From the NCBI GenBank assembly GCA_008632985.1, contig QPGO01000022.1, forward strand, positions 248,001-312,000: a stretch of DNA of 64,000 nt, written 5' to 3'. Position 1 is the stretch's first letter, and each line of letters opens with the position of its first letter. The position numbers were made by a program, and so were the translations under genes. This DNA comes from Psammoneis japonica. Taxonomy: Eukaryota. Below, in pieces: positions 1-37,200 of this stretch. The notes under the pieces were generated by a model. The model saw nothing but the letters and a program-made list of their open reading frames with translations. It was not told the DNA's origin and did no database searches.

Positions 1-229
1 CACAGTGTAGGAGTAGTACTCTCTCATCTCTACTAGAGTCAGTCATACGTACCTACAGTATCGTATGTTTCGCATTCTGGCACATGACCAATGATCGGAA
101 TGTCTTGTGGAGAAGACCAATGCCTTCTTCCTCTCTCCAGATGAATTTGCCAGAGCAGCAAGAGACACTGTCTTTGGATGCACATGCACGTGCTGCATTT
201 TTTCAGCACAAAAGTTACGTAAACCACTT

Positions 230-2340
230 CATCAAAAGCAGCGCGTTGTGGGATTGCCAGAGACTGTTGCAGGATGCACTCACGCAGCATCTCCAGAGCA
301 CAAAACACACAGCACTTGCACGCGACTTCATCAGGGTCATCACCAGTGGCTCGTGGCTCATTTTCTCTCAAGTGTTGCAGCCGAGATCTCCGTGGAACAG
401 GCGCAGTGATGAAGCTTGCGGTCAACAGACTTGCTTGCACCATGTCTTCCACAAGACGACGACCTGGCTGTCCCACCCACCAGGTGAGGCCAACGAAAGA
501 ACAACAACGAGGCAGTTGAGCCTCATTGTTTCGATTGTGACATTGCTGTTGCAGTCGAAACGATTTGTTTTCATGACAAGTGGTCATGTCTCTGCCTGTT
601 GTGGCTGCACCCAACCCCATCAACTGCGAGACCATTTGTGGGTCCATGCCGGACCCATTGGCCGGAGACTGTCAAGCTCATTTAGAGCCTTTCTTGGCTG
701 AGAGCGCCGAGGCCCCAGCTGCCCTGCGTGATGGCATGCTCATGGCTGGCAACAAGGTTCTCAAGGTCTTTGTGCACCTCGTGGGTGAGCCCACACCCAT
801 TGTTCATGTGGTGCACCACACGATGTGCTGCACTCCTGTGCCAGGCCTCGCTGTGCCTTGGGACAACCGCTCTCACACTCTGGCTTCAGACATCAGCCCG
901 AGCAACCAGGAGAGGTTGTGGTCATTGCCTGGACAGTCAACCCATTTGCATGCACACAACTGGTGAGAGTGCCCACCCCAAATGATGTGCAAAATCAGTG
1001 GGCAGCCATGGCTGGAGCAGACTGCCTCGGGCCCTGTGCCGCTGGGGAGCCCCACGTCAAGGAGGTGCGCACACGTTTCTTGGTGCCAACCCCGCCAGCC
1101 TGCTCGTCCCTCACTGCAGCCTGGCAGAACTTCACTCCACAACAGCTCTGGACAGATGTCATCCAACTCATCATTGCTGATGGTTGGGGAGCGGTGTGTG
1201 CCCCTCTGCTCGATTGGGCACACATGCAGCCTGCACTTGTCACACTGGCAATGCTGTGGGTGATCCAGACCAACCACCCACTGCATCACTGGCCATCCCC
1301 ATGGCCCCTGTTGCAGATGCATGTCTCAATCATTGTGTGTCTGGTCATGGCTCACTCAGGACTTGCCTGCTCTTGCCAATCATGCGGGCACCACGAATGC
1401 CATCCTGACCCACAGATGCTTCAGGCCATGCACACAGAGTTTGCCCAGCAGCACACCTGGGCTGCTGCCGCTTGCACCACAGAACATGCCCCAAAGTCAC
1501 CCACCAAAAACTCCCTCAGACAGTTGCTGGCATCCGTTGCATGTGTGAGGTCAATGCCAATGCAGGCTTGCCCGAGATGTGGCACATTCTTGCCGGGGCC
1601 AGCAAAGCGGAAGCTGTTTCCTCCATCCAAGCAATCCTGAATCAATGGGCACAGCAAGTTGGCACCACTTCCAATGCCCCCATCCTTGCACTGGAGCTGT
1701 TCAAGGGCCTGAATGGTTTTCAGCTGGGCAGCGCCGACCCTCAAGACTTCAACAGTGGACTGAGCATCTTTCTGACAATTGCGGGAACGAGCACCCAGTC
1801 CCAGCAAGCACCCACCCGCTCTTTCATCTTCCAGCAGTTGCGTGCCAGTGGAGCCATGCCGGCACTTTTGGACATGGTGCAATTTAACAACTTGGCCCCC
1901 ATCATCTCTGACAGTGCACTGAGTTTCCTGAGAACCTGCTGTGCCTGCGGCATCCTCCTCCTGGAGGTGGTCCCAGGACCAGCTCATCACCTGTTGCAGT
2001 TGTGTCGAGCCAACTTCTTGCATGGTCTAGAATCAATGGTGATCCAACTCAAGGAGTTCCTTTTGCTCTGCATGTTGGACCAGTGCTCTGGTGTCCTTGC
2101 CCGTTGCTGTCATCACACGCAGCTGAATGTGGTGTCGCACCTCAGTGCGGCACCCAGGCTGGGCAACCCCGTGTGCTGCTCCCGAATCTCGAGGAGCCAG
2201 TTGACATCATTTGCATGGAAGGATGTGTGAGTCGTCTCCTGCCTGTCCCCCATGGTCCTGCAACAGGCACCCATGCCAGCTGTGCCGGCCGCTCCAACCC
2301 ATCCGCCGGGTCCAAGTCCACCAATTCCAGGTGGCACTGT
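230..2340 (+). mobile_element. Heavily eroded transposon relic, probably ORF1 (gag-like) of a diatom DIRS/Ngaro-type retroelement
   Basis: Frameshifted ORF pieces 580-966, 825-1640 and 1472-2230 read as one protein once Cys/His is reverted to Tyr (e.g. PNPINCETICGSMPDPLAGDCQAHLEPF becomes ...YETIY...DYQAYLEPF). The block has almost no TpA. The family call rests on recalled similarity, not a search. Confidence 0.5.
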
Positions 2341-3227
2341 CGATCACCTTGGTGGTCTTGGATTCTTTGCTCACTGTCTTCTCTCAGGCTCTACATTTTC
2401 CTCTATCCCATCTCAACCCAAGCCTCCCTGATCCTCTCTTTCTGACCTTCGGCACTCCAATGATTCCTGCTCCACCTTTCTTGCTCTGTGCCTTGTCCTC
2501 TCCGTCTGCTCTTCTCCCATCGGTTGACTTCGCATGGCATTGCCTGTCCTCCGACCGCTTCGGCAGCATTTGTCGCACTGCCTCTCCCTCCCAATTGGCT
2601 TTTCAAGCTCTTAGCTACAACACGTGGTCCTTCACCTCTCCATGCACGCCCTCCGATTTACTTCCTCTCTTCCTGCTCCTTCATCTCCTGTGCCATCAAC
2701 CAAACGTCCTACGTCTAGTGTTTTCACCCTGTTCCACTCTGCCGCCACTACAGCTGCTCCCGTGCCTCCCTCTGCTGTTCCCTTCCATTCTCTGCAGGCT
2801 CTTCATAACTCTATTCTTAAAACGGGCTCCAGACTGACCTACTGGTACATGCCTGGTACTCCCGCCGTTTTCTTTTGGTTCCTCTTGTAAAGCTTCTACT
2901 GTGGCAACAGCCAGGAGCAAGGCTGTTTTGAACAGCCCAGCTTTGGCTGCAACATTTCTGAGCTTTTTCCAGATGAATCAGAGCCATGCAGGGGGGAGAG
3001 GACGGTCGGTCGCTTAAGGAAATGCGGTGATGCTAACAGAAAGCGAAAATAGCTGGGTACCCGATAGAACTAGTCAAAAGGCTGTCGCTTTTGCTAGAGA
3101 GAAGAACTAAGGGGCTCGAATACTTCTAAAAGTACAATCGCTCTACAGCAATTCTAAAAAAAGAAGCTCCTCGAATGTACCGAAACAAGCTCTGAAATGC
3201 ACTACTCTTTTCCCTTTGGTCGGTTCG

Positions 3228-5479
3228 CTAAAGAAGACCTTGACCATTCTTAGACGAAAAAAAGCTGTCAATAGATTTCTGCGTTTTCCCCTTTGACTTA
3301 ATACCATACTGCAAACGAACTTCTTGGGCGATGTGCGGAGGAAGCTCTGCGAGCACATCAACATCAATATCGCTCCATGAGAAAGTTTCTTCTTGTGGCG
3401 GTTTGTGCGAAAAGCTCTTCAAATTCTGGATGCAACGCCGCTCTTCGTTGTTCCTCAGACTGCAAGGATCTTGACCGCTTCGCTTGCTACTTGCAGTTCT
3501 GTCAAAATGAGGTGCTTCGTTCGATGCCGTTGCCTTAGAAGACACAGATTGTAACTGAGAGAAGATGCAGCGCTCGGGGTTTCTCTTAAAAGCGTCATCG
3601 GACTGCACATCAGAAAAATTGGTTGCTGCAATATTCATTCTCGTGACGTTTACGCTATCCCAGTTTGAGAGCAACGAATCCAACAACGGTTTCACCGCAT
3701 TTTCCAGCTGTCTCCGCATTTCAATGTCTGACATCTTCATCAGATATCTTCCATTTATTTCACATTGCTTGCTCTTGGTAACGAAAGGGCGTCGGTTTTG
3801 TATTCTGCTGTCAACCCCTCGCACCGTCACACGGATTGTAGTTGGAAAGGCGCGGTCGGGATTGGTCGAGTCCGACCTTCGCTGATATAGTAAACGAGGA
3901 AGCCTCAAGAGCAAGTCTTCCATGGCATTCCAGACAGCTTTCCATGACAACACTGTGCCTCGTCGAAACGAGTTCTCGACTGAGACAGTTTTTGGGATAC
4001 CGCCGCGGTCATCAGTGATAGACGAAGAATCAACACCTCGACACTTGTCAAAAAGCATGTCACAAATCGGAAAACTGACAACAGAAGAAGCAGTGACAAC
4101 AGGAGTGCGCAATCAAGTGAGCATACGATGCATCGCCAAAATCATCATGCGCTTGAAAATGCGCACTGACCTGTTGGACGAGTTGCAAGATTTCAAATTT
4201 TCAATGCTCGATTGAACTTGGTGACGAGGAACTTGCAGTAAATCGCTTACGAGTTATGACGAAGAAAAAAATAGCGTTACATACAAAAGCCAGTGGTGTC
4301 AGTCGACAGAAACACCTACTCTATCCTTTGCCATCTTACATAAAACGTACCGACATGTCCAAAGTCCGGTTCTGAAGAATGGTATTGCCGCAAGCAAGGC
4401 GTTAATACCGATAGTGTGCGATGCCCGAGCTGCGGGATTTTTCGTAGCGGCATTGGGAGAATAAGTTGTGATGCTTTCCAAGGGTACAGAATATTGAGAG
4501 AATTGGGCTTCTTCCTCGCAGCAGTAGATATGGATGTGAAACAGACAATGCGTCGAGAATGAGGATCACAAAACCAAATCATTGAACAACCAACAACAAC
4601 AACCAGTGACGCGAAACTAACCTTAAGTTCAGATGCCAGTTTTGCTAGCATGGGCGAGACGGACACTCCAACCGTTGTGTTGAATCCTGTTTCTGACTTG
4701 ATAGCGCGTCGTACTTCGTCAGCCATTCCAGCCGCAACTTGCAACCTCTGAGAACACTGTGTCTTTTGCAATTCCGAGAATCCAATGTGACGGCTATACA
4801 GAGGGGACAACTCGTCGCGGAAGGTGCCCGGTCCAACTGTGCATGTCGCGCCACTTTGGTCTTCGGTCAAACAGACGACGTTATGAGACATCTCACCATA
4901 GACGTAAAGGTTCGGCGATGACACGCTTCTGCGAGAGCCTTCTTTGCGAACGGCTAACTTGACAGCAGCAGTAATGTCTGCACACATTTCATCAAAGCCT
5001 CCCTTGCGCGCCGGAATACCCTCTCCTAGTCTTCTGACCGCCTTTCGGAACGTGTTGTATATATTTCGCGAATGCGCTCGATAGCGTTCAAGATCCGAGC
5101 CCTCGATTATAAGCAAGTTTGGACAGATTTGTTTAGCTTCAGAGCGAGATTGGAGCTTTTTCACTCCGACCTCACGTGCGACGTAATTGCTTGTAACAAT
5201 GATGTGCTTTTGACCGATAGCAATTGGACGCTCTTTGTAATCCGGTGGTCCGTCTATTTCCTCACACTGACAATAAAAGCAATCTACATCTAAATGTAAA
5301 ATGCATTTCGACCACAGTATTTCGATGGAATTGTTTTGTTCAATCCCAGCAGATAACGCGGCACCACAGTGGCGATCTGAATCGCTTTGTTCGACGAAAC
5401 TCGTTGCACTTTCGTCGTCTGATGATGATACGCTGAGGCTCTCACCAGGGGAGTGCAATTCAGACAAATCAAAAGGCAT
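3228..5479 (-). CDS. POLI: Y-family DNA polymerase, Pol iota-like (about 4 exons; introns near 4621-4512, 4350-4248, 4168-4076)
   Basis: Motifs ILHLDVDCFYCQ, PIAIGQKHIIVTSNYVAR, GGFDEM, TVGVS...LAKLAS..KKPN, LPMPLRKIPQLG and little-finger PTTIRVTVR. C-terminal ubiquitin-binding motif DIDVDVLAELPPHIAQEV. GT donors are visible (aag|gttag, cg|gtacg, cag|gtcag). Confidence 0.85.
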
Positions 5480-5790
5480 GACTCAACTTTTCACCACAGA
5501 CTTCACGCGAGCTCGAGCTGTTGCCCTATGATGATCATGAAAAAGGTGCATCGGCTTTTCCAATCTCCTTGTCTCCGTCTCACGAAGAGCAGCTTCCTAA
5601 TTGCTCACCACGGAGTTGCTCACCTACTCTACCGTGCCGTGCCACATGCTCACCACGACTTTTTCGCTTGTTCGAACCACACACGTGCAGCATGTCCCCG
5701 CCCCCCTCTTGTCAACTGACGAAGGCCTGACGCGAATGCGCCATAAAATGATGTGCCGGTAAATGTGTGTGATGTCGAGTTGAGAGTGCA

Positions 5791-5916
5791 TCCACACTGT
5801 TGTTTGCATTGTAACGACAAGACGCCGACACACCAAAGAGGCCATGCCATCCTCCACATTGTTGTTTGCATTGCAATGACAAGATGCCGACACACCAAAG
5901 AGGCCACATGCCATCC
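5791..5916. repeat. ~62-bp tandem duplication (2 copies)
   Basis: tccacactgttgtttgcattgtaacgacaagacgccgacacaccaaagaggcca versus tccacattgttgtttgcattgcaatgacaagatgccgacacaccaaagaggcca. Confidence 0.95.
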
Positions 5917-7701
5917 ACACCCAAGAGGCCACGCCATCGATGCTGCCACCCACACCCAAAGCCAAAATGAAGACATGCCAAAATGAAGACATGCAAGTGT
6001 CTGAGTTGTCCCACTGTGTTGTTGCAGCACAGCCCAAAGCAAGAAATGACATTGACATTTCTCCCATGGCTGCTGCATCTGACTGATTGGCTGATTGATG
6101 TGGCTGGGGCAGAAAACGCAGCAGAAGATGAGCTCAAAAGAAGCAAAGCAAGTTTCTGCAATTTGGGGGAAGGTGCTGACTGTGTTGCGTTCATCATGGC
6201 ACCTGTGGGAGGCGCTGGAGCATGCCAAAACAGAGCATGAGACAGCAATCATGCTGTTGACATTTTGGAAACACAGCAGCCATGGAAACATCATCGCCTG
6301 TTGAAACACACAAAGCATGAACAGCGCAAAGTGCGCCGGTTGCCTGAGTGGTGCTGACTGTGATGCACTCATCATGGGCACCTGTGGGAGGTGCCAGAGT
6401 GTGCCAAAACAAAGCACAAAATTGTGCAGTTGCACTTTTGTCATTTTGGGAACATGGCAGATGTGGTGAGCATGTGACGAGCAATGCCACGGTGAGCAAT
6501 TGGCAGCTCTTCTCATGAAACCCTCCTTGTTTGTTTGCTTTGTGATTTGTGCTTTGGGCAAGCAATTGATTTGATTGATTGAGTGCATGATTGCAGTTGA
6601 GCATGCAATCACAGTTAAGTGCACACAATGTGAGGAGGAGGAGCAGAGCCAGAGCGAGCAAGCAGAGTCAGCGAGGTGCTCTCATCTGTCGTGCATCTGT
6701 GAACAAGCGGGCAGGGAGCACTGACCATGCACACCACTGGAGTGAGGTTGTCCTTCATTCCCTGCTGAGCCATGTGTGTGTGTGTGTGCTGCTGCTGCAC
6801 AGTGCATGCATTGCTGTGTGGTGTCTGCTGCCAGGTTGTTCACAGCAGAAAAATTGCTGGCAACGCAATGGTCATCATGCCAGATGGTGCCATGATCGGC
6901 AGCGTGGATTGCCATTGCACAAGATGGCTCATGTCAAGTTTTGGGCTGCATTGCAGATTGTTGTTGGTGGTGACTCATCATTGTGTGAGATGCTTGTCAT
7001 TGGACACACAGACTTGTGGCGCACTTGTTCTTTTGACAACATGTTGTTGCAACATTCCTTCAATTGGGGAGGCAAGGACAGGATTTCAGATTGTCTGCAT
7101 GTCATGACATCATGGCAAGATTCATGCATGGTGCTGCAGCTGTTTTTTGCAGAAATTTGCAGCAACAGCATGCCAGGTTGCTGATCTAGCATCGTTGAAT
7201 TTGTCATGCACCTCATTTTGTGGTTGATGTTGTTGCTTCTCACTCACAGCAAACAGAGGTTTTCTTCTTGTTTTTGCAACCACAATGGCACAACACACAT
7301 GCCAAGTTGCCATTTGATGCAATTTTTCTGCTGCAGCTGTCTCGTGTGCAATTTGCAGTCGAGTGCCTTCATTCAAAACCAGCAAAAATTGAGTGTTTCT
7401 CTTGACACACCACACTGGCAACCCCAATTTCACACAAACTTCAAGCTCTTCTAAAAAACAGCTCCACACACCCACTGCATGGAATTTGTTAATTTTTTGG
7501 AAGTTTCTGTCAACTCCAATGTCCTCAATGACCATTCCTTGAATCTGAGCAATTGATTTGAATCAAACAGACCATGCTGTTCCAAAACACAAGGGGTGCA
7601 CTTTAAAATGCCAACCAGCCAACTGACCAACACAAAAAAGTGTGCAGTCACCAACCACTGAGTGGTCAATGATTCTGTCCATCTGGCAATCTGTCTTGCC
7701 A

Positions 7702-7826
7702 TTTGTCAGAAAGGGCCCCAGCAGGTGTTCTTCTTGACACTCCACCAAGGTCATCACATGACTGTTTGTCAGGAAGGGCCCCAGCAGGTGTTCTTCTTGA
7801 GGCTCCACCAAGGACATCACATGACT
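7702..7826. repeat. 63-bp tandem duplication (2 copies)
   Basis: tttgtcagaaagggccccagcaggtgttcttcttgacactccaccaaggtcatcacatgact repeated with a few substitutions from 7765. Confidence 0.95.
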
Positions 7827-8479
7827 CTTGTTTTGCAATGATGATGCATCAAACCAAGTTGTCATCTCTGGTCACAGACTCCAATCCCAAGTGGGAACAG
7901 TCTGACAACAGCAGAACCTGAGCAGGTTTGGCATGAGAAAATTTTCATTCCTGATGTGGACCTGACAGCACCGCAGTTGATGCCGGGTGGTTTTGGGGAT
8001 TTAAAGACCAAAGCAACCCTTGAGAGCTTGTGACACATGACAAATGATTGTCAAAGCATCATCAACAACATCCAATGTCATTGGAAAACAACTGTTGACT
8101 CATGGTGCACAAAATTGAACTGACCAAGTGTCACACACATGGGAAAAGAATCAACACAGCCATCTTGTCATCCGGCATCTGCCACAATTTGTGTGCCACA
8201 TGCATGAACCACTCTGACTCACAGGGCCAACAAATGATGTGGCCCATCAAAACCAAGTCCTCACAAACTCAGGTTGCAGACTCCAGCCAGCCCCAAGTGC
8301 AAATGTGGTCTGACACAAAAACTGGCCAATTTGGCCTGAGAAATTTTCATTCCCAATGTGAGCAATCACCCATGGACCCAACAGCACCACAGTTGAAACC
8401 ACCATCATCAGGACTCACATCCAAAATTTTGATCTGATTGCTCAACTCCACACAGCTCACAACTCAAGTGAAGAGAGCA

Positions 8480-11400
8480 AACAATGGCAGTTGTGCCACC
8501 ATCAGTTGCAACAAGTGACCTGGGCCATTGTTTCTTGTGCAAGCAGCTTGGAGTGTGCAGTGGTTGTGGGTTCTTGGATCTTCAGGGCCCAAATCTGGAA
8601 TGGCAAGAAATGTTGGTGCTTGATCTTCTGCAATGAAACGTTGACACTGAGTTGTTGAACTTGTTTTTCAGATGCGTTGAAGAAAGGCTTCTGAAGACCA
8701 CCTCTGCCAATCAGCACAACGGAGTGCACAGGAGTGTTTGTGAGGTGTGTTGCCACAAATGGGGCTGGAGTGGGCGTCAATTTTGGATGCTCATGGCCTG
8801 ACTTCTCTTTTCTGATTGCATTTGTAACTGCAGAGTGAATCTTCTTGGTCAGAATGACTGATGAGAGAGAAAGCAAAGTTTTCCCTTGGGGCAGACGGCG
8901 CATGCTGGGGAGTCTGGGTTGGCTCCTGGGTGGGACAGCACACAGCAAACTGCTGCAGACTGGGCACAGACTGGGCAGAGTGGATTGTTCCCAGTTTGGA
9001 ACATCATCCATGCATTGCATTGCTTGACTTGCCATTCTTTTTGCACTCAAAGCTGACAGAGATTGTGTTGGCTGGTGCCAGGTCTTGGTCTTCATGGTCC
9101 AGTTTGGTGCTCTTGTGAGAACAGCAGGGGTTGCTGAGAGCCAACAGCTTGGTTTGTTGCTTGCCTTTGGTTTTGGAGCACTTGCAGGAGTTGCAGCTTT
9201 GCAAAGAACCAAGTGCCAACAATCAGTTGGCTTGTTGTGATGTCTCTTTGCATGTTGCTTGGTTTCAAGACAAAGCACAGAGAAGGGAGGCAGTGATTGC
9301 CTTTTTGTTGTTTCCACTTTCCATCTTGGTTCTCGCAACCTTGGTGTTGGTGGAGAAAAAGGTGTGTGAGGTGCATCTGTCCTTGTCCAAAAAGATGTGT
9401 GAGGTGCATCCGTCCTTGTCCAATCTTGGGTCCTTCATGTCACAAGACCTGAAGGACAATGCCACATTGTCTGCAGTGGCTCTGTGATGGTCCCTGCCAC
9501 CATTGTGCCAAAATCATTTGGCAGAGTGTTGCCCTTTTTGCGTGGCTGTTGCAAAGGCTCCAAGGGTGCAGCGCAATTGGATGACAGCAAGCTCATCCAT
9601 GAATGGGTTGTCTGCAAGTCCAACCTCACCAAAAAAGTGTTCTCAGTGGGTGAGAGCTGCACCTTGCTTTTTGTTGGTGTGTCTTTGGCACTTGCTTCTC
9701 AGTGGGCTCCTTCAGTGTCAAGGAAGTCAACCAAGAGAAACAATTTTGTTGGCAAAAAGGTGAGATGTGAAAAAAGCAAATGAGTGAGTGTGTTGTCAGA
9801 TGAGTTGCCATCATGGGATGGGCAGTCACCAACAGCACTCTTCTTTCCTGGAAAACAATGACTGAAGGATTTGCTTTTGGCACCCAGCATGATTGGTGCA
9901 AATTTGTGGGTGATTTCAATTTGTTCTAGATCAGTCTCTTCATTGCCAAAGTTGGACTTTGCAGCCAGCAGTCAGCCAGAGGTGGTGGTGCTGTTGCCTT
10001 GGGAAGAGCCCGTGAAAAGGGCAGGAGGTTGCCTTTGATCATGTGAGCAATCTGCCCACATGCCGTGAGTTCCTTGGTTTTGAGTGTGAGACCATGTGCC
10101 AGATGATGGAGAATCTCCTGCAACACATCAACCTGTCTGGATGTTGCAGCCACTGACACCACATTCAGATGCAAGTTTGAGAAATCTTCTTGTCCAAAGC
10201 CTTCCATCTTTGATCTCTCAAGAGGTCACATCTTGAGCCACCTTCTGTTTTTGACATGTGGTGTGAGTCAACACAGGTGACTCAGGAAGTGATGTGTGGG
10301 GAATGATGTGTCCAAGGCAGTTGAGGCAACCAACAAGATGTTGTTCAATCTCCTTGTGTGAGTTCCACCTTTCTTGACAAGTTGTTGGAATTGCTTGGGC
10401 CAAGCCACAAATTTGCCTTTTGAAAGTGCCGTGCTCATGTGTCATGTGTCTGGCAGCCAGCCAAGGACTGTCTTGAGTTGTTCAAGTCTCCCTTCAACAA
10501 GGATCTTCTTTGAGCAGGTGAGGTTGTCACAAATGAGATCTTTGTTGGGGTGCACTGGCTGGCAAATGGCAAACCGCATCCATCCCCAGGAGCACTTCTC
10601 TTTGTTTGGCAGCACATGTCAACATCTGGAATGACTGTGACTGTGTCATCTGTGCAGGATGGCATTGGGAGGGATGTCAACCAGGATGTCAAGAGCTGGA
10701 GCAAATGGCACATCAGCGCTCTCACAATGTGGGGGGAGGTGGTCTTTTGTCAGGTTTTGGAGGGTGGTTGGGTCCCAGGACTTGCGCTGCAGGATGTCAT
10801 TGCCCAGATTGCAAATTGATCTGGAGATGTTGCCCCACAGATCTGGTTTGGCTTGCATCCACAGCAGGTGAATCTCAGAGCCAGGGGGGGGGGCAAGAAG
10901 TCATCCATGGTGGCAATGGATTGTGCCACTGTGTTGCTGTTCAAGTGACCTCAGCAGCAGGCCAACTTGCAGTTGGTCTTCTGGATCAGAGCCCAGGTTT
11001 GTGGGTGTTGGAGATGGGCTGATGCAACGTGGTGTGTCAGGCAGTGCAGCACATTTCCATGGTGCGTGCAAGGGGCAAGAAGTTCTTCAGATGTGACTTT
11101 GGGATTCACTGAGGTGCCCAGCCCCAATTTGAAGGATTGTTCATGAGCAACGCACTTGGATGGAACCACCTCACCCCTTTCATTGATTGGGAAGATGATG
11201 GATCTTGTCTTTCAGCAGTCAGGGGCAGTTCCCAGCATTCGTGGACTTCATTGTGAAGTTTTTCTCTCAGGATGGATGCATGTCACTGCTGACTTGTGGT
11301 TTCCTCTCTCAATTGCTTTGCCCAGGTTGTCATGTTGCACACCCTCTTTGACTGGTTCAAGGGAAACTTGGCTGGCTCCATGGGAATTGACTTTCTTCCA

Positions 11401-13330
11401 CAGTGGGTGACAGTGGAGATGCAGTCAAAGTTGATCTGTGTGGATCAAAACTCCAAGCTGTGACCTGAGATGATGTTCTTTGAGGTTGAGGCATTGAGAT
11501 GGAATCATCTGACTTCATTTGGCTGCTTTTTTCTGGCTTCAAAGGAGAATGAGATTGGCTTTGATGGCAGTCATGTGGAGGTTCTGGTGAGGTGAGGTCA
11601 TCTGTCAGCTTGAGCAGTGGAGCATCATTGGATGGGGTCTGAGCAGTCTGGCTGAAGAGACAGAGATGTCAGCAGATCTGCAGAGTTGGCCTCAGGTGGT
11701 GACAGTGCAAAAGGCTCCACTGGGTCAACCTTGGTGTGAGACTTTTGGATTTAGTTGCATGAGAGGCCAGGGCAGGGGTCCACTGGGTCAGCCTGGGGTG
11801 ACAACTTTTGGCAGGTTCCACTGGGCACTTCCAAGGAGAGCACTGTTTGGATTCAAAAACCTTCAGATCTGCTGAGCCAGGAGGCATTTTGATGGGCTCC
11901 ACACTGGGTCATCCTGGGAGGAAGACTTTTTGAATTTGGGTGTCCTGGGATTTGTCTTTTGTGTTGAAAATGGGGAAGCAAGTCCATGGGTCACATGGGC
12001 AATCTTTGGGCAGCAGATTTGGCATCTTGGGGGTTGCCTTGGGGGCTGTCATCATCAGGATTGTTGCTGCTGAGTCTTGAAGGTCATGGCCCTGCAGCTC
12101 AATGGCTCCATGCGGGTGAGTGCACTTGCCAAGCATCTCATGCATCATCTCTCATTGCTTGAACAATTGTTTCTCTGTGCCACCTGGGCTCCTCTCACAT
12201 TGAGGTGTTCCTTGGATTGCATGAGAGATAAGGAGAAGTTGTTGGTTGTGAGGAGGGGGGGGGGAAGTCATGCAGCAAGGAGAAACTTGATCCTCTCATT
12301 GAGTCTTGGGATCTTGAGTTGTCATTGAGACAGTTAGAACTTGATCTGTTTGTCTTGATGAGGCACAATTTGGAGTGGATGGGAGGTTGCAAGGAGGAGC
12401 TTCATCTGCTTGTTTCTTTTGGGTGTGTTTCTTGTTTTCTTGTTTGGCAGGAGAGCTTGCATGTTTGCATCACTTGAAGCTGCCGCCACTGCCAAGAAAC
12501 AACATGCATCCCACTGTCCGGCATTGTCTTTGTCAGATGGGGAGGAGTTGCAACATGAGGAGATCCACCTGGTCACACCCTGCAAAACTTTCCCATGAGA
12601 TTTGGAGCATTTGAACTTGCACAAGGAGGCAATGCAACAGCCCTTTTTGATGTGGAGCTTGCTGGGAGCCAGGTGCCTTCAAATTCAGGCAAGGATTTGA
12701 TGTTTGGGTGGCATGCTTTGCTGCAGTCTTTGTCTTGTTTGAGCTTCCAGGCAGGGGCCATTTCATCATTTCACACCAACTTGCCTTGATTGGTGGCTGA
12801 GTCCTCTCCTTTGTGTTTGGCACCATGCTTGTCATCATTGTTTGGAGGTGGAGGTGGCTGGGAAGGCTGGGGTGATTTGAGCAAAGTGTTCCGAGACTGT
12901 CTTTGCTGGAGGTTGGAGAAGCTGATGAGAAAGTTGTCAACATTGCTGCAGACCTTTGCATTGGTGCATTCTTGTGGTCACAGTTGTGCACATTGATCAA
13001 TGTCTGGGAGGACTTTGGCAAGGAAGGTGGAGTCCTTTGCTTGATGTGAGATGTGGTGCTTCTTGACACGGCAAGCCCAGGAGAGAAGGTTTGGCTCCAC
13101 TGTTCAGTTTTCACCTGCAATGATGGCAAGCAGGCTTGCAAAGTTTTGGATCTGGACAGAGAGAGCATCTGCAGTGGGGGGCTCATGCAGAATCTCTCAC
13201 AACAAGTCCAAAATGCAATCTGCATTGCTGCTCAACAGGCAGTTCACAAAGAAGTTCTTCAAGCTGCTGTTTGCCAGCAACACAGCAAACAAGCTGCCAT
13301 CTTTGTGAGACCAAAACAACTCCTGTTGAG
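8480..13330 (-). mobile_element. Decayed DIRS/Ngaro-like tyrosine-recombinase retrotransposon (ORF1 with C-terminal Zn-knuckle-like region, RT, RNase H, YR)
   Basis: Minus-strand motif remnants lie in the expected order. ORF1 end WKLKQDKDCSK...CKFKCSKSH (~12600-12750). RT ICNLGNDILQRKSWDPTTL...VPFAPALDILVDIP, CTDD (=YIDD, 10645-10656), KILVEGRLEQLKTVLGWLPDT*, LVGCLNCLGHIIP. RNase H QGNSTTTSG*L..KSNF and FPGKKSAVGDCPSHD. YR LIVGTWFFA..SC..SKTKG..TKLL, TISVSFE.KKNG, NPLCPV, PVHSVVLIGR/WSSEAFL..I.KQVQQLS. Confidence 0.85.
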
Positions 13331-13399
13331 ATTTTGATGCACAATGACGATCATCACACAGCATCATCAACAATGTCTGACATTTTTGAGAAATGACTG

Positions 13400-16300
13400 T
13401 TGAATTTGCTGCAAGAAATTGAATTCACAGAATGCCATGTGTGCAGCTGAAAGAATCAGCAGTGCAACCATCTGATTGTCCACCCATGGGTGTCAACCTT
13501 CTTTCCAGAGCAAACTGTGGTGGTGGGGGGGGGGCACTTTGTGCACCCTGCATGTTTTGCTGGTGCAGGAGATGAGTTTAGATTTGACCCACATGGCAAC
13601 ACGCAACAAAATTGTTTTTGCCAAAGTGGGGGGCAGCACCTCTCACAAATCTCCGGAGAACTTGTGCTTGCAACAAATGCCAAGACGCCTTGTTGGGTCC
13701 TCTTTTTTGTTCACTTTTGCACATTCTTTCATTGCCACCAGCTCCAATGATTTTGACATTCTGAGCACTGCCAAGCACAAATTCTGCTTGGTGTGATGCC
13801 ATCAAGAGAGACTCAGATCCCTTCCAAAATCAGAAACTGGCGGGCCAGTCTTGAGGTGCCAAAGTGGACATTTTTGCATTGGCAAGATGGCAGCCAAGGC
13901 CAGGATCCAGCAGGAGGGGTTCTCTGCCAACAGCTTGCTGTCAAAGAAGACAAAATGTGGGCCACACACACTGGAAGTGTGACAACAAAATCTCAGCTGA
14001 GCACCTGGAGAGACTCTGCAACCACAGTCACAGCTTGCAATTGCACACCCAGTTTCTGGGCCAGTTCAAAAGCAGCATTCTCTGAGACAATGGCTCCTGA
14101 TGGACAGGCTGGGGTTGACAACAAACAACATGGCACAGAGGTTGGTGGCTGGCCAAACAAGAAGCTGCAGGCAGGTGTGTTGACACTGGCAGCAGCTGCA
14201 AAGATGGAAGCAACAAGACTGCAGCTGGCTCTCCACCACAATGAAAAGCACAAAGATGTGCAACACTTTCCAAGCTGCCCGGGCACAACAGAAGATGGAA
14301 GAACAAATTCCTGCTGCACAAGTGTGCCAGCTGGGTCAACAAGAAAGACACAGCATCATGATGTGTGGCACATTGCAAGTTTGCAGCCCACATTGGGCTT
14401 GCTCACTGTGTGTCTGGATGTGCTGCTGCAATGTGCCAGTGCCCAACAAGACATTTTCAAGCTCTGTCTGGCTTTCCATGCAATTGGGTCTTAGAGTGCT
14501 TTGCTGGGTGTGAAAAATGTGAAAGAGAAGCAAGCTCTGACTCCCAGCTCAAGATGAAAAAAGCCGCTGCTGAAATGCACAAGCTAGCCAGCAGTGTCGT
14601 GGCCCAGCTTGATTGTGGCTGCTCTCCACCCCAGCTTCAAGGAAGTCATTTGCTGCTTTTTTCATGAATTTGGCTGAACAGCTTGTGATTTGCATGACTT
14701 TTCCCAAATTTCACTGTGCTTCACCATGGTGAAAACATCAAGCCACAAGTCTGCAATGGAGGTGGTCCATGCATCTGCACCAACTCTCATCTTTTTTGTT
14801 TTCATTGTGTGTCAAAGGTTGCACACTTGTGAATGGACCACTTTGCTGTTTTGGAGAAATGTTGAGATTGCTGTCATTGTCATGCATCTGGTGTCATGGT
14901 GCCAGATGTTCTTGTGTTTGTGCATGTCAGGTGTGAACATGGACAATTTTTCCATTCAAAAATGAACACTGCAAACAACCTCATTCAAGTGCCATGGCAC
15001 CAATTCCAGGACAAGAGTGGGGAGATGACCTGCCTTGAATCTGCCAAGAATGCTGCCATCAAGGTTCATGTGCTTTTGGACACATGCCAAGACATGTGAA
15101 AGATCAGAAGCATGCTTGCAGTTCCTTGGAAAATCCCAGCAAAAGCTTTGTGTGCCAAGCCACTGGGGTTATCCAGCAAAGGGTGACTGTTTTCTTCAAG
15201 AGCATTCTGTGCCACTCTCAAAGTTCAGGACATGCAACAAGGGTGTCAACAGCCTGCGCCAAATGCAGCAAAGCTGCAAGAGGATGGGAGGCACCATTGC
15301 CCAAAAATGGACAGCCACACTCATCATTGCCCACATTGTTGTGCACACTTGCTCATGTTTTGGGGAGCAGCTCCTAACTCCATTGAGCAAAAGCACCTCT
15401 GCACCAATTGTGCATGCACCAAATGGCAGCAGCACACTTTTTGGGATGATGTCACACACCTCACAACCCGTGTGCAAATGTGGAGCTTGTGGCAAGCTGA
15501 GCAAGGTCAAGTGCATGCAACATTGACCAGAGTAAGTGAAAACCAACCATCCTGTGTTTGTTGTTGAAAATTGGCCAGCTTTGCAAACAAAACAGCTGAG
15601 TTTTTTGTCTTTGTGCTCAGATGGATCACCCACATCATGGTGCTCTTGTGCTTGAGCCAGAGCTCTTGCACATTGTGCAGATTTTGTGTGCTGCTGCACA
15701 AGTTGCTTGGGGAACCTGCAACATTTCAGGAACTCTGGCTCTGCAGCTTCCAACCAATGGTGCAAAAAATCCTTGCAACTGGGCATCATTTGGTGACTGA
15801 TGAAAGCCAATGTTTGAAAACAAGTCTCTCCAGTGCTTTTTGCAGAAGAAAAAAATCTGGCACCATTTGTGCACCACTGGCAGTTCTGCAAGTGGAAGCA
15901 AAGCTGCATGCAATCAATGCTGCAAATGCACCTGGAGGCTGCACATGACATCTGCTTGAAGAGGCTCCAGCAGAGAGATTTGATTCTCAAGTGCACAGAA
16001 GCACAGCCCACAGCACAGATGTGTGCTGCATTTTAGCTGACCAAAAGCCCCAAAGAGTGCCAACACCAACCAGCAACCATTGGGCATTGATCAGTTGGAT
16101 GCTGCTGCAGCCTCAGTTGCAACTCAGAATTTGACCAAAGTTGGGCATTGTGGCAACAATGAACATGGCACCCACACCAGCATGTCTGCCTGGTCTGAGT
16201 CACATCACACTGATGTCTGGATTTCCCCAAGACTCATGCAGCACTGTGATGAAAGCACTGCAAGATGTTCTTGGTCTGCACCTCTGTCACTCTGAGACTG

Positions 16301-17340
16301 TGCTGTGCCTGGCAGCAAAGGTGAGGAGCAGAAAGAATGGTGCTTGGGAGCCAGCATCACAAAGATGGCACTTAAGAGGAACTGACATCAAAAAGATTAA
16401 GACAAGCACAAAGAGCTGTTGCATCATTTGGGAGAGTCAAGGGAGCACAAAGCAGTCAAAGAATTGCTGTTGGAGGATGGAAAGGACAAAACACTCTTGC
16501 AACAAACTGGAAGTGAACGTCTCACAGATGAGTTTTTTGCCAAGTTTTTCTGAGCACATCATGGAAGTCCAAGAGAAGATCTTTTGGAAGCACTGCACCA
16601 TGTTGTCACATCTTTGAAAAAGCTCCGTGCATGACCCACGGGAAAGATTGCAGGATTGTTGATCCCATGACTCTCAGAAGGTGAGTGAGTTGGTCTTCAG
16701 CAATGGCACAGCTTGGGCTGAGTCCCACAGTGAATGGAAAAGTTGTTGCCACTAAAGCTGCTAAAAGCACTGGGGAATTGGGTCAGCAAACTTTGTTTTG
16801 TTGACACAGATTGTGCTGGAAATCTGTTGACTCAAAGGCTGCACAGCCAACATTGATTTTTGTGCAAACAGCTCCACCTGTCATTTGGCTCAACAGGAGA
16901 CAAAACCAAATGGAGTCATCTTCTGCTTTTGGAGGTAACACCTGCTTTTCACATTCCAAAGAAACTGGTTGTTGCACTCCAGTGCAGCTTGTGAGTGTTT
17001 TTTGTGGTGCTCCAGTTGAGGGTCCGTCAAAAGTGCTTTTTGTGTGAAAAAATGGAGTGGAGGAGTTGTGAAAAATGTTGGCACTCCAGGGTCTGAAACA
17101 CAACACAACTGTCTGCCATGTTGCACACAAAGCTGTTGCTCTGGGTGCTGTGAGGGTTGGAAAAGAGGATGGAGAAACAAATTTGGCAGACATGTTTTGA
17201 CCAGGTTTGTGATGCAGAACACTGGCTTTGATTTGTTGTGGTCAGGCCCTGGCACCCTTCTTGTGCCACCCACACAGTTTCACCTCCCAGGCCAATTGTG
17301 ATTGGTGGTTCATGTCTCTGGGCTCTTTGTGTTTTACTTC
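13400..17340 (+). mobile_element. Eroded TE-like coding relic of uncertain family (Crypton-like tyrosine recombinase is possible)
   Basis: Same TpA/CpG erosion and frameshifted protein-like fragments (e.g. TNQQPLGIDQLDAAAASVATQNLTKVGH...LMSGFP near 16065-16230) loosely resembling the Crypton YR C-terminus. Weak. Confidence 0.3.
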
Positions 17341-17539
17341 CACATTGGAAGACATTTCAATGATGGGCCCAGTGGATCATGGGGACCTGATGAATTCTTG
17401 CAGTCTGACCGACTTCGAAAGACACCTGTCTGTTCTTTTGGTGTCTTGTCGTGACACTCGGCTCCAGTGGGATTGTTCTTTACTCTATTGTTGGCTTTCT
17501 TCATCTTGGGACGAGGTGAGACCGGTAGAATTTGCTCGT

Positions 17540-17651
17540 ATGGTAGAGAGGCCCAATGGTGGGAGATGGCCATTGGCTTTGTGTGCTGGAAGACGCATGG
17601 TAGAGAGGCCCAATGGTGGGAGACGGTCATCGGCTTTGTGTGCTAGAAGAC
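17540..17651. repeat. 57-bp tandem duplication at the edge of the eroded block
   Basis: atggtagagaggcccaatggtgggagatggccattggctttgtgtgctggaagac versus atggtagagaggcccaatggtgggagacggtcatcggctttgtgtgctagaagac. Confidence 0.95.
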
Positions 17652-34999: not shown

Positions 35000-35208
35000 A
35001 AAGCAGTTGAATGTTCATTGTTTTCGATTGGCGGCACCGCTGCCATGGTCGAAGATGACTTGTTTTTGCAACCCACCCTCTGCCGGTGTGTGCCACACAG
35101 AGTGAAAGATGAGATGGAAGAACACAAGACATTGTGGCAAGCAAACCCAGCCCCAACAGTTGCGCGAAATCATTTGGAGTGCTTGAAGAATGCACCCTTT
35201 GTGTGTGC

Positions 35209-35242
<34 letters not shown>

Positions 35243-37200
35243 ATGGAGATCATTTGTGCAATCGACCAACTCAAGCAAGCAATGACACCCCCCCCCGATC
35301 GTTTTGACACAACAGCTCACCACACGTCAACAACAGCAGCCGGCCGCTGATGAGGCCACCATGAAAGTCTTGCTCCTGACTTCGACCAACGCCATTGTGC
35401 CTGCTGCTTGTCTGAACAGTTGGACAACCACCCAAATGGCAGCTCTGCCTCAGCTGCCACATCTTGTTGGTCACATTTGACAGAGAATCTGCTGCGCCGA
35501 TTCTGTTCGTTCGTTCAAGAGAGAGAGAGAACGGAGATCATTCGTGCAATTGACCAACTTAAAGCAAGCAATGACACACACATGATGATCATCAGTGCAA
35601 AGAATGATAAAATCTTTGGTGCGCGCAGACACAAGACCAAGTTTTGCAGGTTTCTTGAAGAGTTGTCTGTCAATGTGAAAAGCACCCGATGAGCTGATGA
35701 GAGCAGCATGCCTGAAAGAGGTTGCAATGGTGGAGTCAGATCAGAGCCCTTTGGACAGACTGCCTTTCACTTGTGAGAGATCACCTCACCTCCAGGCAAT
35801 CAGAGCATCTGCCAGACAACCGCCACTGGCACAGCCACAGTTTAGAACATCAGAGGGTGAGCTGCTGGGCTCTCACCAAGAACCACTGAACATCACTTGC
35901 ACTTGGACCTCTGTGATGTTTTGATGTCATGACAATTGTTGAAAAGTTTTGCTCAAATCTTTGCATGGCAAATTTGCACATGTCAGAGTTGAGCCACTTG
36001 CAAACAGCGAAGTTGGCACATGCAGGTGCATCGGTGCTTTGGACAGATGGACAAAGAGTGATGAATCTGTCTGACTCTGGCTGCAGGGCATGCACTCCGA
36101 CACCTGTGTGCACTCTGACTCAACCCATCTCCTGCCTTGCTGCACTGGCCCTGGCAGCTGGCTGCAGTGCAGCAGCCTGCTCTCTCTGGCCACTGGCAGA
36201 GGCCTCCATGTGCTGGCTTCTTTTGCACTCATTGCGCCTTTCACAATTTTGCTCTTGCCACTTGTTCCCCTTTGGATGCTTTCTTGATTGCTCTGATTGC
36301 TGCAAAAGAGCAAGTGTGAGAGGTTTGGAACAAGATTCACAGTGTTGCTTTTGAGAAATTCTTCTTGGTCAAGGTGCAAGGAAACAAGCGGATGTCAGCT
36401 GCACACAAGTGTGCCAAATTTGTGACAAAAGCACGCCATTTGTTCAACGAATCTTGTTTTGTGCATTGCTTGGAACCTGTGTCGCTGGCGCACATGCCCA
36501 CAGCAGCATGAAAAGTTTGGTGCACTTGATGCTCTGTCCATGGCTCTTGCACATTTGCTCATCTTCCCTCATCTCCCACCAAATCAATTTGCTTGTTCCC
36601 CATTTGTTTTGCAGTGCACACACACTTCTTGATGTGCATCTTAAGCCCTTCATGCAGACCCAAATGTGGAGCACAATCTTTTGCCCGAGGGATGAGCAGA
36701 ATGGCTGGTGTGGTTGTCTGAGCCTTTTGGTTGGTGCCAAGTGCGCAGGTGTGAACCCTCACTTTCTGCCCTGTGCTGTGTCACTGGCCAGCATTCGCAC
36801 TCAATCTTCTCTCACCTCCTTGTCACAGGTCTGATCATCCTCCACCAGACAGACTCGAGACTGAGTGAAACCTCAACGCAACAAACACACAGCCTGTTTC
36901 GTGACTCTGTGTTTTGAAATTTTGCATCGGCGGACAATTTGCAATGGTCTGACATGGGAACAAGTGAGTGGCTGTTCCAGCACTTACAATGTCACTTTCA
37001 TGTCTGACACATTTGTGAGCGTGAGCACTGCAGTCAGAATTCTCACTTGTGCGGCGTCCTTCATCTTTGCTCTGTGTCCAAAACTGTTTGAACAATGCCT
37101 CTGCTGCCTGCCAGTCATTGTGTATGCCTTTTCCATCTTTTATGGTGGCCAATGCTTAGGACGACTTAGCCTTGTGGGTCAAGCCAAAAAGAAATCTGCT
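35000..37200. mobile_element. Third TpA/CpG-eroded block, unidentified TE-like relic
   Basis: TpA nearly absent, Cys/His-rich junk ORFs, and a duplicated ~55-bp segment (35233-35288 / 35521-35578). Confidence 0.55.
35200..35242. repeat. Compound (GT)n(GA)n microsatellite
   Basis: gtgtgtgcgtgtgtgtgtgtgtgagagagagagagagagaga. Confidence 0.9.

Follow-up and report, generated by a model that had tools for sequence, protein, structure and literature searches.

Three islands stripped of TA and CG dinucleotides, one carrying a decayed Ngaro-like retrotransposon, in a contig of Psammoneis japonica

The stretch of DNA analysed here (the window; 64,000 nucleotides (nt), positions 248,001 to 312,000 of contig QPGO01000022.1, assembly GCA_008632985.1 of Psammoneis japonica) contains three islands, B1, B2 and B3, that are stripped of the dinucleotides TA and CG. 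The largest, B2, carries a decayed tyrosine-recombinase retrotransposon of the Ngaro kind, which comprises a gene in the gag position (open reading frame 1, ORF1), a reverse transcriptase (RT)/putative ribonuclease H (RNase H) gene and a putative recombinase gene (ORF3), and occupies about 13181-8470 of the minus strand (Table 1). A first-pass annotation of this DNA had noticed a curiosity at the level of motifs, i.e. two decayed RT motifs whose TA dinucleotides appeared to have been lost; the larger fact is the existence of the three islands.

Table 1. Positions of the islands and of the features recognised within or at the edge of B2. Expected counts are explained in the text.
Feature	Positions in the window	Strand	Details
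Island B1	221..2600	strandless	TA 5 vs 88 expected; CG 74 vs 151 expected
Two tandem units of ~62 nt	5791..5906	+	straddle the left edge of B2
Island B2	5814..17405	strandless	11,592 nt; TA 24 vs 427 expected; CG 68 vs 737 expected; CA 1279, TG 1416
Tandem CA/TG doubles, window vs run X1	7045-7046, 8089-8090, 10264-10265, 12941-12942		
Tyrosine-recombinase (ORF3) remnants	8470..9687 (9687-9004, 9016-8876, 8756-8604, 8703-8470)	-	three frames; ORF3 profile E 8e-18
RT/RNase H gene, C-terminal part	9384..10055	-	profile 577-803, E 2e-19
RT palm and thumb	10223..10852	-	profile 281-495, E 2e-29; two frameshifts around the catalytic motif
RT N-terminal part	10864..11433	-	profile 77-277, E 1e-21; holds A-C-C-stop
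ORF1 (gag-position gene) remnant	12684..13181	-	profile 429-608 of 660, E 8.9e-6
Island B3	35000..37050	strandless	TA 5 vs 75 expected; CG 44 vs 130 expected

The expected counts of TA and CG in the islands were taken from the rates in the remainder of the window, where the observed/expected ratio (o/e) is ~0.58 for TA and ~1.03 for CG. Inside the islands the o/e is 0.03-0.05 for TA and 1.7-2.0 for CA/TG, so that CA+TG is nearly doubled in all three, while the share of all pyrimidine-purine steps (CA+TG+TA+CG) is unchanged (0.240-0.250 inside vs 0.237 outside), which points to transitions within these steps and not to transversions; the G+C content hardly shifts. In each of the three islands TA loss exceeds CG loss in completeness: B1 and B3 have a TA o/e of 0.04-0.05, yet they keep about one third of their CG (o/e 0.35-0.37). 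There is no TA at all in 10001-11000, nor in the 500 nt around the two RT motifs. The six frames of B2 contain 588 TGA stops vs 42 TAA and TAG stops taken together, and with so few of the latter many long open frames occur there. The edges of B2, resolved to ~50 nt, are sharp, and the left one runs between two tandem units, of which the outer contains TA and three CG, and the inner, in the corresponding positions, contains CA and TG, with one CG left.

A weak inverted match of 32 nt (75%; 5810-5841 / 17425-17456) is located just beyond the edges of B2, has kept its CG and shows the core TGT-N-ACGACAAGAC-N-CC; this pair may represent the ends of an outer element, or chance. Tandem duplications, with units of 63, 33 and 57 nt that are 91-94% alike, are also present at 7702-7827, 9356-9421 and 17537-17650, within B2 or just outside it. 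Self-BLAST of the islands returned no mutual likeness and no long terminal repeats, and a repeat search of them returned only short tandem units and the weak inverted pair. For B1 and B3, neither Pfam, nor our three own profiles, nor a homologue search assigned a family, and Pfam and the own profiles gave no retroelement signal; the longest ORF of B1 had no homologue among 757 candidates.

The first-pass annotation had taken the element in B2 for an RT/RNase H/recombinase retroelement of the DIRS/Ngaro kind, and own profiles, a fold search and homologues all agree with this. Frame 1 of 8000-11200 (minus strand), with X at stops, was used as the HMMER query against 1.84 billion representative proteins, and 206 proteins were retrieved at E<=1e-3, 25 of them at E<=1e-10, which matched query residues ~116-350. 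The RT profile was built from 29 long members of the family, to which the counts out of 29 below refer. Pfam revealed no transposon domain on the three read-through frames, nor on 231 stop-to-stop ORFs of at least 50 amino acids (aa) from the three islands; the family members found by HMMER have no Pfam match at 1e-3 either, and among the 29 long members RVT_1 and RVT_thumb are each found once (E 0.03 and 0.012, respectively). Against the sequences of the PDB, the family profile hit only the thumb fragment of the RT of human immunodeficiency virus (E 0.06). However weak these sequence matches, an AlphaFold model of the relative P0143, computed with the family alignment as input (mean predicted local distance difference test score, pLDDT, 78.5), found the RTs of Moloney murine leukaemia virus (MMLV; best, E 1.9e-10), cauliflower mosaic virus (CaMV), foamy virus and Ty3 in the fold search. 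The ESM atlas returned leads only, namely unnamed fungal clusters and RVT_1 clusters at 0.89-0.94. In addition, the RNase H-like motifs D-A-x-x-x-G-x-G-G and N-x-x-A-D-x-L-S-R can be seen by eye in the relatives, and the P0143 model has an alpha/beta arrangement at residues 617-790.

Relatives of the element are encoded in 38 metagenome loci (L001-L038), which were scanned with a 3-member alignment, the 29-member one being too diverse. In intact relatives, an ORF1 of ~670 aa is followed by an RT/RNase H gene of ~1000-1200 aa and an overlapping ORF3 of ~430 aa; this order is seen in L001 (element length ~5.9 kb), L008 and L016, the RT gene with ORF3 also in L013, L014 and L015, and the order in the window is identical. 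ORF3 weakly matches Pfam Phage_integrase in three of six relatives (E 2e-4 to 4e-3; 17-21 bits, below the cut-off of 27.1), and four of the six have the C-terminal F-L-R-Y motif. Ngaro elements have the gene order gag, RT/RNase H, recombinase, and DIRS1 has gag, recombinase, RT/RNase H/methyltransferase. The window element shares with the Ngaro type the order ORF1, RT/RNase H, putative recombinase, the lack of an integrase or endonuclease and an RT with a YxDD motif; its family differs from that type by its divergence (RVT_1 in one of 29 members) and by recombinase matches below the Pfam cut-off. As to the split direct or inverted terminal repeats that characterise the DIRS order, only the weak 32-nt inverted match at the edges of B2 was seen. 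The window copy itself is broken: its RT gene has four or more frameshifts, the aligned columns include 21 stops, and only 196 of its 612 RT columns equal the consensus. This Ngaro-like family is widespread, occurring in diatoms as well as in metagenomes of marine and freshwater origin, and its RT eludes Pfam RVT_1 despite a clear retroviral-type predicted fold.

The two RT motifs pointed out by the first-pass annotation are where it had placed them: minus-strand positions 10656-10645 read TGC ACA GAT GAC (CTDD), and 10465-10442 read CTT GGC TGG CTG CCA GAC ACA TGA (L-G-W-L-P-D-T-stop). The family bears out that both are remnants of conserved motifs, CTDD of [Y/F][I/L]DD (Y17/F10/H1/C1, I23/L6, D29 and D29 in the 29 relatives) and the other of LGW..[D/N]TR (L27, G29, W29, x, x, D16/N11, T26 and R25). 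In the former, TGC is read as derived from TAC and ACA from ATA; in the latter, CCA probably comes from CTA and TGA from CGA. CTDD sits in a short frame-shifted piece of 14 residues, which the RT profile alone does not score; from its DD to C-Q-P there are 26 codons, as there are 26 residues from DD to GQP in the relative P0124, and DDTVTVIPD of the window matches DDTITVTPD of P0124 (E 0.007). Another motif, A-Y-R-R (A29, Y26/F2/C1, R27/K2 and R29 in the relatives), is A-C-C-stop in the window (10962-10951). The earlier claims on the recombinase fared less well. PVH (8732-8724) was said to replace PVY, which three of six relatives indeed have at that place and the other three do not, and FEC (9051-9043) was said to replace FEY/F, a claim we could not uphold, as the six relatives have M (four), W (one) or R (one) there and never Y or F.

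The RT genes of the relatives have a TA o/e of 0.32-0.73 in all 38 loci, and a TA-free stretch of at least 400 nt was found in none of them; since all 38 relatives have ordinary TA, the TA-free state of the window copy is derived. The direction TA to TG/CA, together with CG to TG/CA, that had been proposed at the outset is thereby supported, as it is by the absence of any Tyr codon and by Cys/His at Tyr-prone sites. On the sense strand, the mean frequencies in 12 intact relatives are CA.084, TG.051, TA.033 and CG.061, from which a symmetric conversion predicts CA.131, TG.098, TA 0 and CG 0; the window element has CA.128, TG.091, TA.001 and CG.005. When such a conversion was simulated in 11 relatives, the correlation of the 16-dinucleotide profile with that of the window rose from 0.63 to 0.94.

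The same changes can be followed in the codons. We have compared 1160 aligned columns of the window copy with the residues expected from the family profiles, and found 0 Tyr (31.0 expected), 38 Arg (75.2), 50 Cys (16.0) and 63 His (32.0); the three of the 21 stops that were read at codon level are TGA. The 14 strongly Arg columns are now C (eight), H (two), Q, stop, V and R (one each), and the Arg codons retained in the 612 RT columns, four in number, are all AGR. If A is changed back to G at the first base of a codon, the consensus is recovered in 23 of 96 cases after C, in 4 of 45 after A and in 2 of 42 after G, and transitions that recreate CG restore it in 50 of 206 cases vs 50 of 435 for other transitions (p 6e-5). 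Where the window has a Cys or His codon, the family probability of Tyr is 2.15-fold higher (permutation p 0.0006); a Phe control is also raised (1.67-fold), because aromatic columns are shared. The evidence for TA loss from the window codons consists mainly of there being no Tyr at all, of the two Tyr sites that are best conserved, and of the fit of the composition.

Further evidence for TA loss comes from a group of predicted proteins with almost no Tyr (P0135, P0274-P0276, P0278-P0280, P0284, P0290 and P0314; 406-869 aa). P0135 (736 aa) has zero Tyr and 10.9% Arg, with A-C-R-R and C-I-D-D as its motifs; contigs of 0.7-5.3 Mb, apparently from an assembly other than that of the window, carry its close relatives. 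The nine further proteins, 83-97% identical to P0135 by best local alignment, have 0-3 Tyr in 406-869 residues, and Arg stays at 8-11% throughout the group; five more distant relatives have 8-14 Tyr. Nine columns are mixed for Cys and His among the copies, and the outgroup has Tyr in seven of these nine (for example, CHCHHHHHH and HCCCCHHH in the copies). At one column C, Y and H all occur, depending on the copy, and at another five copies still have Y. Between P0135 and P0274, 26 of 636 sites differ; 13 of these are pairs expected from alternative outcomes of TA loss within a codon (C/H, A/V, L/P, M/T, C/Y) and four more are A/T. That some copies have Cys and others His, with Arg kept, argues that TA was lost independently in each copy, after copying, far ahead of other substitutions and with CG untouched. 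TA loss is thus separate from CG loss, and the same order is seen in the window, where B1 and B3 are without TA but have part of their CG. As judged from their sequences, the predicted proteins of this group are hypermutated transposon copies, which have remained open since the loss of TA makes no stop codons.

The window has also been compared with the contigs of X1, a DNA run made on the same sample (it is possible that sample and chemistry are those of the assembly). The X1 word depth is 53-62 across B2 vs 60-70 on its flanks, and a single X1 contig of 2997 nt covers 8814-11798 with 10 differences and 16 gaps relative to the window. The TA-free state is therefore not an assembly error, the X1 contigs concurring at normal depth. 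In total, 343 X1 contigs aligned to the window, of which 167 are less than 90% alike. Two segments within B2, 7204-7737 and 14680-15213, which flank the Ngaro-like element on either side, have very high word depths of 1940 and 1537, respectively, vs ~60 elsewhere, and B2 is accordingly a mosaic of repeats that differ in copy number. We counted 231 differences between the window and X1. Among the 40 that were listed, 11 are CG vs TG/CA, which means that CpG loss in B2 is still polymorphic in the sample, and eight positions form four tandem CA/TG doubles (Table 1), which may reflect a single ancestral CG or TA that was resolved one way in one allele or copy and the opposite way in the other.

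The genes flanking the islands are compact and eukaryotic, and encode PAP-fibrillin, Paf1, CWC25, PPR, Kelch, EF-hand/Vps62 and SNF2 proteins. The fibrillin is closest to proteins of diatoms (56-74% identity), including those of Seminavis, Thalassiosira, Cyclotella, Ditylum and Amphora. A gene for a Y-family DNA polymerase is found at 4000-5600 on the minus strand (Pfam IMS, E 7e-33). A contig of another run, X2, lacks three short introns of this polymerase gene (96, 114 and 111 nt, GT..AG, minus strand), and X2 is probably RNA-derived; its contigs gave nothing solid over B2, from which we conclude nothing about expression.

Taken together, we consider it probable that nearly every TA and CG of the copy in B2 was turned into CA or TG after its copying from a master with ordinary TA, the TA being removed by a hypermutation limited to transposons and separate from the decay of CG. 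An action in place is favoured on several grounds: B2 (11.6 kb) is about twice as long as an element of ~5.9 kb and is a repeat mosaic; the conversion is strand-symmetric, with both outcomes within one copy; the tandem units at the left edge are split, the inner one alone being converted; and the CG vs TG/CA differences and the CA/TG doubles fit repeated, independent changes of dinucleotides. These points may leave room for editing at the last copying step, so that the earlier claim of TA loss after insertion is favoured here but not distinguished from loss during that step. If each new copy had been hypermutated at TpA on RNA or cDNA before its integration, and so had been dead on arrival, the alternative outcomes at one Tyr codon in the P0135 group would be expected from editing per event, the sharp edges of the islands would be accounted for, and the only element identified is indeed a retroelement. 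The occurrence of both TG and CA in one strand-symmetric copy is, however, unlike single-strand editing, and the length and mosaic copy numbers of B2, the lack of retroelement signal in B1 and B3, and a left edge that divides a tandem duplicate also speak against it; we regard such editing as unlikely. Slightly less likely still, in our judgement, is that there was no dedicated process at all, and that the islands are very old, silent, methylated transposon DNA under slow, context-biased decay. The window copy is certainly old and broken, as its frameshifts, stops and divergence from the consensus testify, and CG loss is graded between the islands and still polymorphic. Copies that are 93-96% identical to each other nevertheless have almost no Tyr left already, with TA-outcome pairs making up half of their differences, so that TA loss must have run far ahead of ordinary substitution; furthermore, the TA/(CA+TG) ratio of 0.009 requires, by calculation, a forward rate ~100 times the reverse rate, and TA is equally lost where one third of CG remains.

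Two other explanations have much less to recommend them. Modified TpA or CpG bases misread by the sequencing chemistry, or a wrong assembly, might mimic the islands, as the assembly and X1 may share sample and chemistry, and 5-formyluracil, an oxidised thymine, is read as C by polymerases according to a published report (PMC6100112). Such an artefact is nonetheless very improbable: the genes also hold real frameshifts and deletions, the depth is unremarkable and the contigs are consistent, any base that invariably paired as C in vitro would pair so in the cell as well, and Tyr-free copies occur in a second assembly. The empty Pfam results in all island frames and the blindness of the profile to the 14-residue piece might suggest that CTDD and LGWLPDT-stop resemble such motifs by chance and belong to non-coding DNA; this is refuted by homologues and profiles, with three genes of one family aligned in order and orientation and a motif spacing as in the relatives, and it retains next to no probability.

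Several observations weigh against hypermutation at TA as we describe it. Back-mutation, which the first-pass annotation had proposed as a check, was carried out as codon-wise counts and returned a signal for CG and none for TA: transitions that recreate TA restore the consensus in 18 of 183 cases vs 50 of 435 for other transitions, and at the first codon base after T the exchange of A for G does so in 5 of 67 cases vs 2 of 40 and 2 of 33. These null tests have low power, because the relatives are 30-45% identical and Tyr alone must contain TA. The same distance means that the ancestral codons are inferred ones. The proposed count of ancestral Tyr sites was borne out in part, as five of the 12 columns with a family probability of Tyr of at least 0.3 are now His or Cys and seven hold other residues. 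The presumed catalytic Tyr of the recombinase is Arg (CGC) in the window. Moreover, the TA-free state of the P0135 group is deduced from proteins alone, and, since X1 perhaps stems from the same sample as the assembly, their agreement may leave room for the misreading of modified bases.

Hypermutation of repeats is known from other organisms, though in other chemical forms. Repeat-induced point mutation (RIP) occurs in Neurospora and other Ascomycota. It is restricted to duplicated DNA, takes place before meiosis and depends on an enzyme of the RID type. It shares with the islands transitions at one dinucleotide, confinement to transposons or repeats, near saturation, action on both strands, sharp edges and independence between copies. 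RIP, however, turns CpA/TpG into TpA (C:G to T:A) and thereby enriches TA, lowers G+C and creates stops, whereas the islands lose TpA (A:T to G:C); instead of TpA raised at the cost of CpA/TpG, we found a TA o/e of 0.03-0.05 and lost Tyr codons. In Basidiomycota, hypermutation of repeats is directed at CpG. The deamination of methyl-CpG in vertebrates shares with the islands the change of CG into TG/CA on both strands and the replacement of CGN-Arg by Cys, His, Gln, Trp or stop, and changes of this type are indeed seen in the Arg columns, at the cross-codon CG sites and in the reversal test; it leaves TA untouched, however, whereas the islands have lost TA more fully than CG. APOBEC3 and ADAR, the latter of which prefers A after U, are similar in that retroelement copies are killed by enzymatic deamination, but their action is on a single RNA or cDNA strand, strand-asymmetric and in looser contexts, whereas the islands are symmetric and only self-complementary pyrimidine-purine steps are affected.

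The changes in the islands, which are transitions about equally frequent on both strands, are probably explained by two superimposed processes, a fast removal of TpA and a slower loss of CpG. The former would be limited to the islands, acting on transposon copies wherever the content is known, and TpA would be lost by A:T to G:C, with Tyr turned into Cys or His and ATA-Ile into Thr or Met, and with no stop codons possible; the latter would presumably proceed by deamination of methylated cytosine, turning CGN-Arg into Cys, His, Gln, Trp or stop. We infer that the host acts in place and in a defence-like manner. As for the chemistry of the TA loss, TG or CA can arise from TA only by A to G or by T to C, and a cytosine methyltransferase or deaminase can bring about neither. 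One candidate would be deamination, in duplex DNA, of adenines preceded by T; the other would be enzymatic oxidation of thymines followed by A, which would yield a G-pairing base such as 5-formyluracil and hence T to C. The latter base pairs with G and is read as C by polymerases, which results in T-to-C changes (PMC6100112). Diatoms also have DNMT4 genes, which are related to that of the RIP enzyme RID and whose function is given as unknown in a published study (PMC9998398); they could bear on the CG part only.

A more far-reaching proposition, which we advance tentatively and hold somewhat less likely than its opposite, is that diatoms possess a defence-like hypermutation that is the mirror image of RIP, in which the TpA of transposons is turned into CpA/TpG on both strands and reading frames are left open. 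For this, either a TpA-specific DNA adenine deaminase would be needed or a thymine that, when oxidised or otherwise modified at TpA, pairs with G. Every Tyr codon would be erased, as would many codons for Ile, Leu and Val, and, in combination with 5-methylcytosine at CpG, the two self-complementary pyrimidine-purine steps would both be marked and eroded in silenced DNA. We know of no DNA-editing defence that uses A:T to G:C at TpA. Our search of the literature found no description of a hypermutation that destroys TpA, only RIP, which creates TpA, or CpG decay, although subscription journals lay largely outside it and a prior description is possible. There is a fair chance that a TA-destroying chemistry would be categorically new.

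Because TA loss makes no stop codons, hypermutated copies keep long frames from which gene callers predict proteins, as in the second assembly; Tyr-free transposon 'proteins' are thus both an annotation trap and a search signature. If the proposed hypermutation is real, it would explain how the islands escaped domain searches, and genomes could be scanned for its signature of TA near zero, an unchanged pyrimidine-purine total and Tyr-free proteins. A natural TpA-directed enzyme acting on double-stranded DNA would also be of interest to base editing, and a phenotype would be at hand for the RID-related DNMT4 of diatoms, for TET/JBP-like genes or for deaminase genes. To our knowledge, transposon-directed hypermutation is known chiefly from fungi, where it works through cytosine deamination; a loss of TpA through A:T to G:C changes would add to this another means of killing mobile DNA, distinct in its chemistry, in major primary producers of the ocean.

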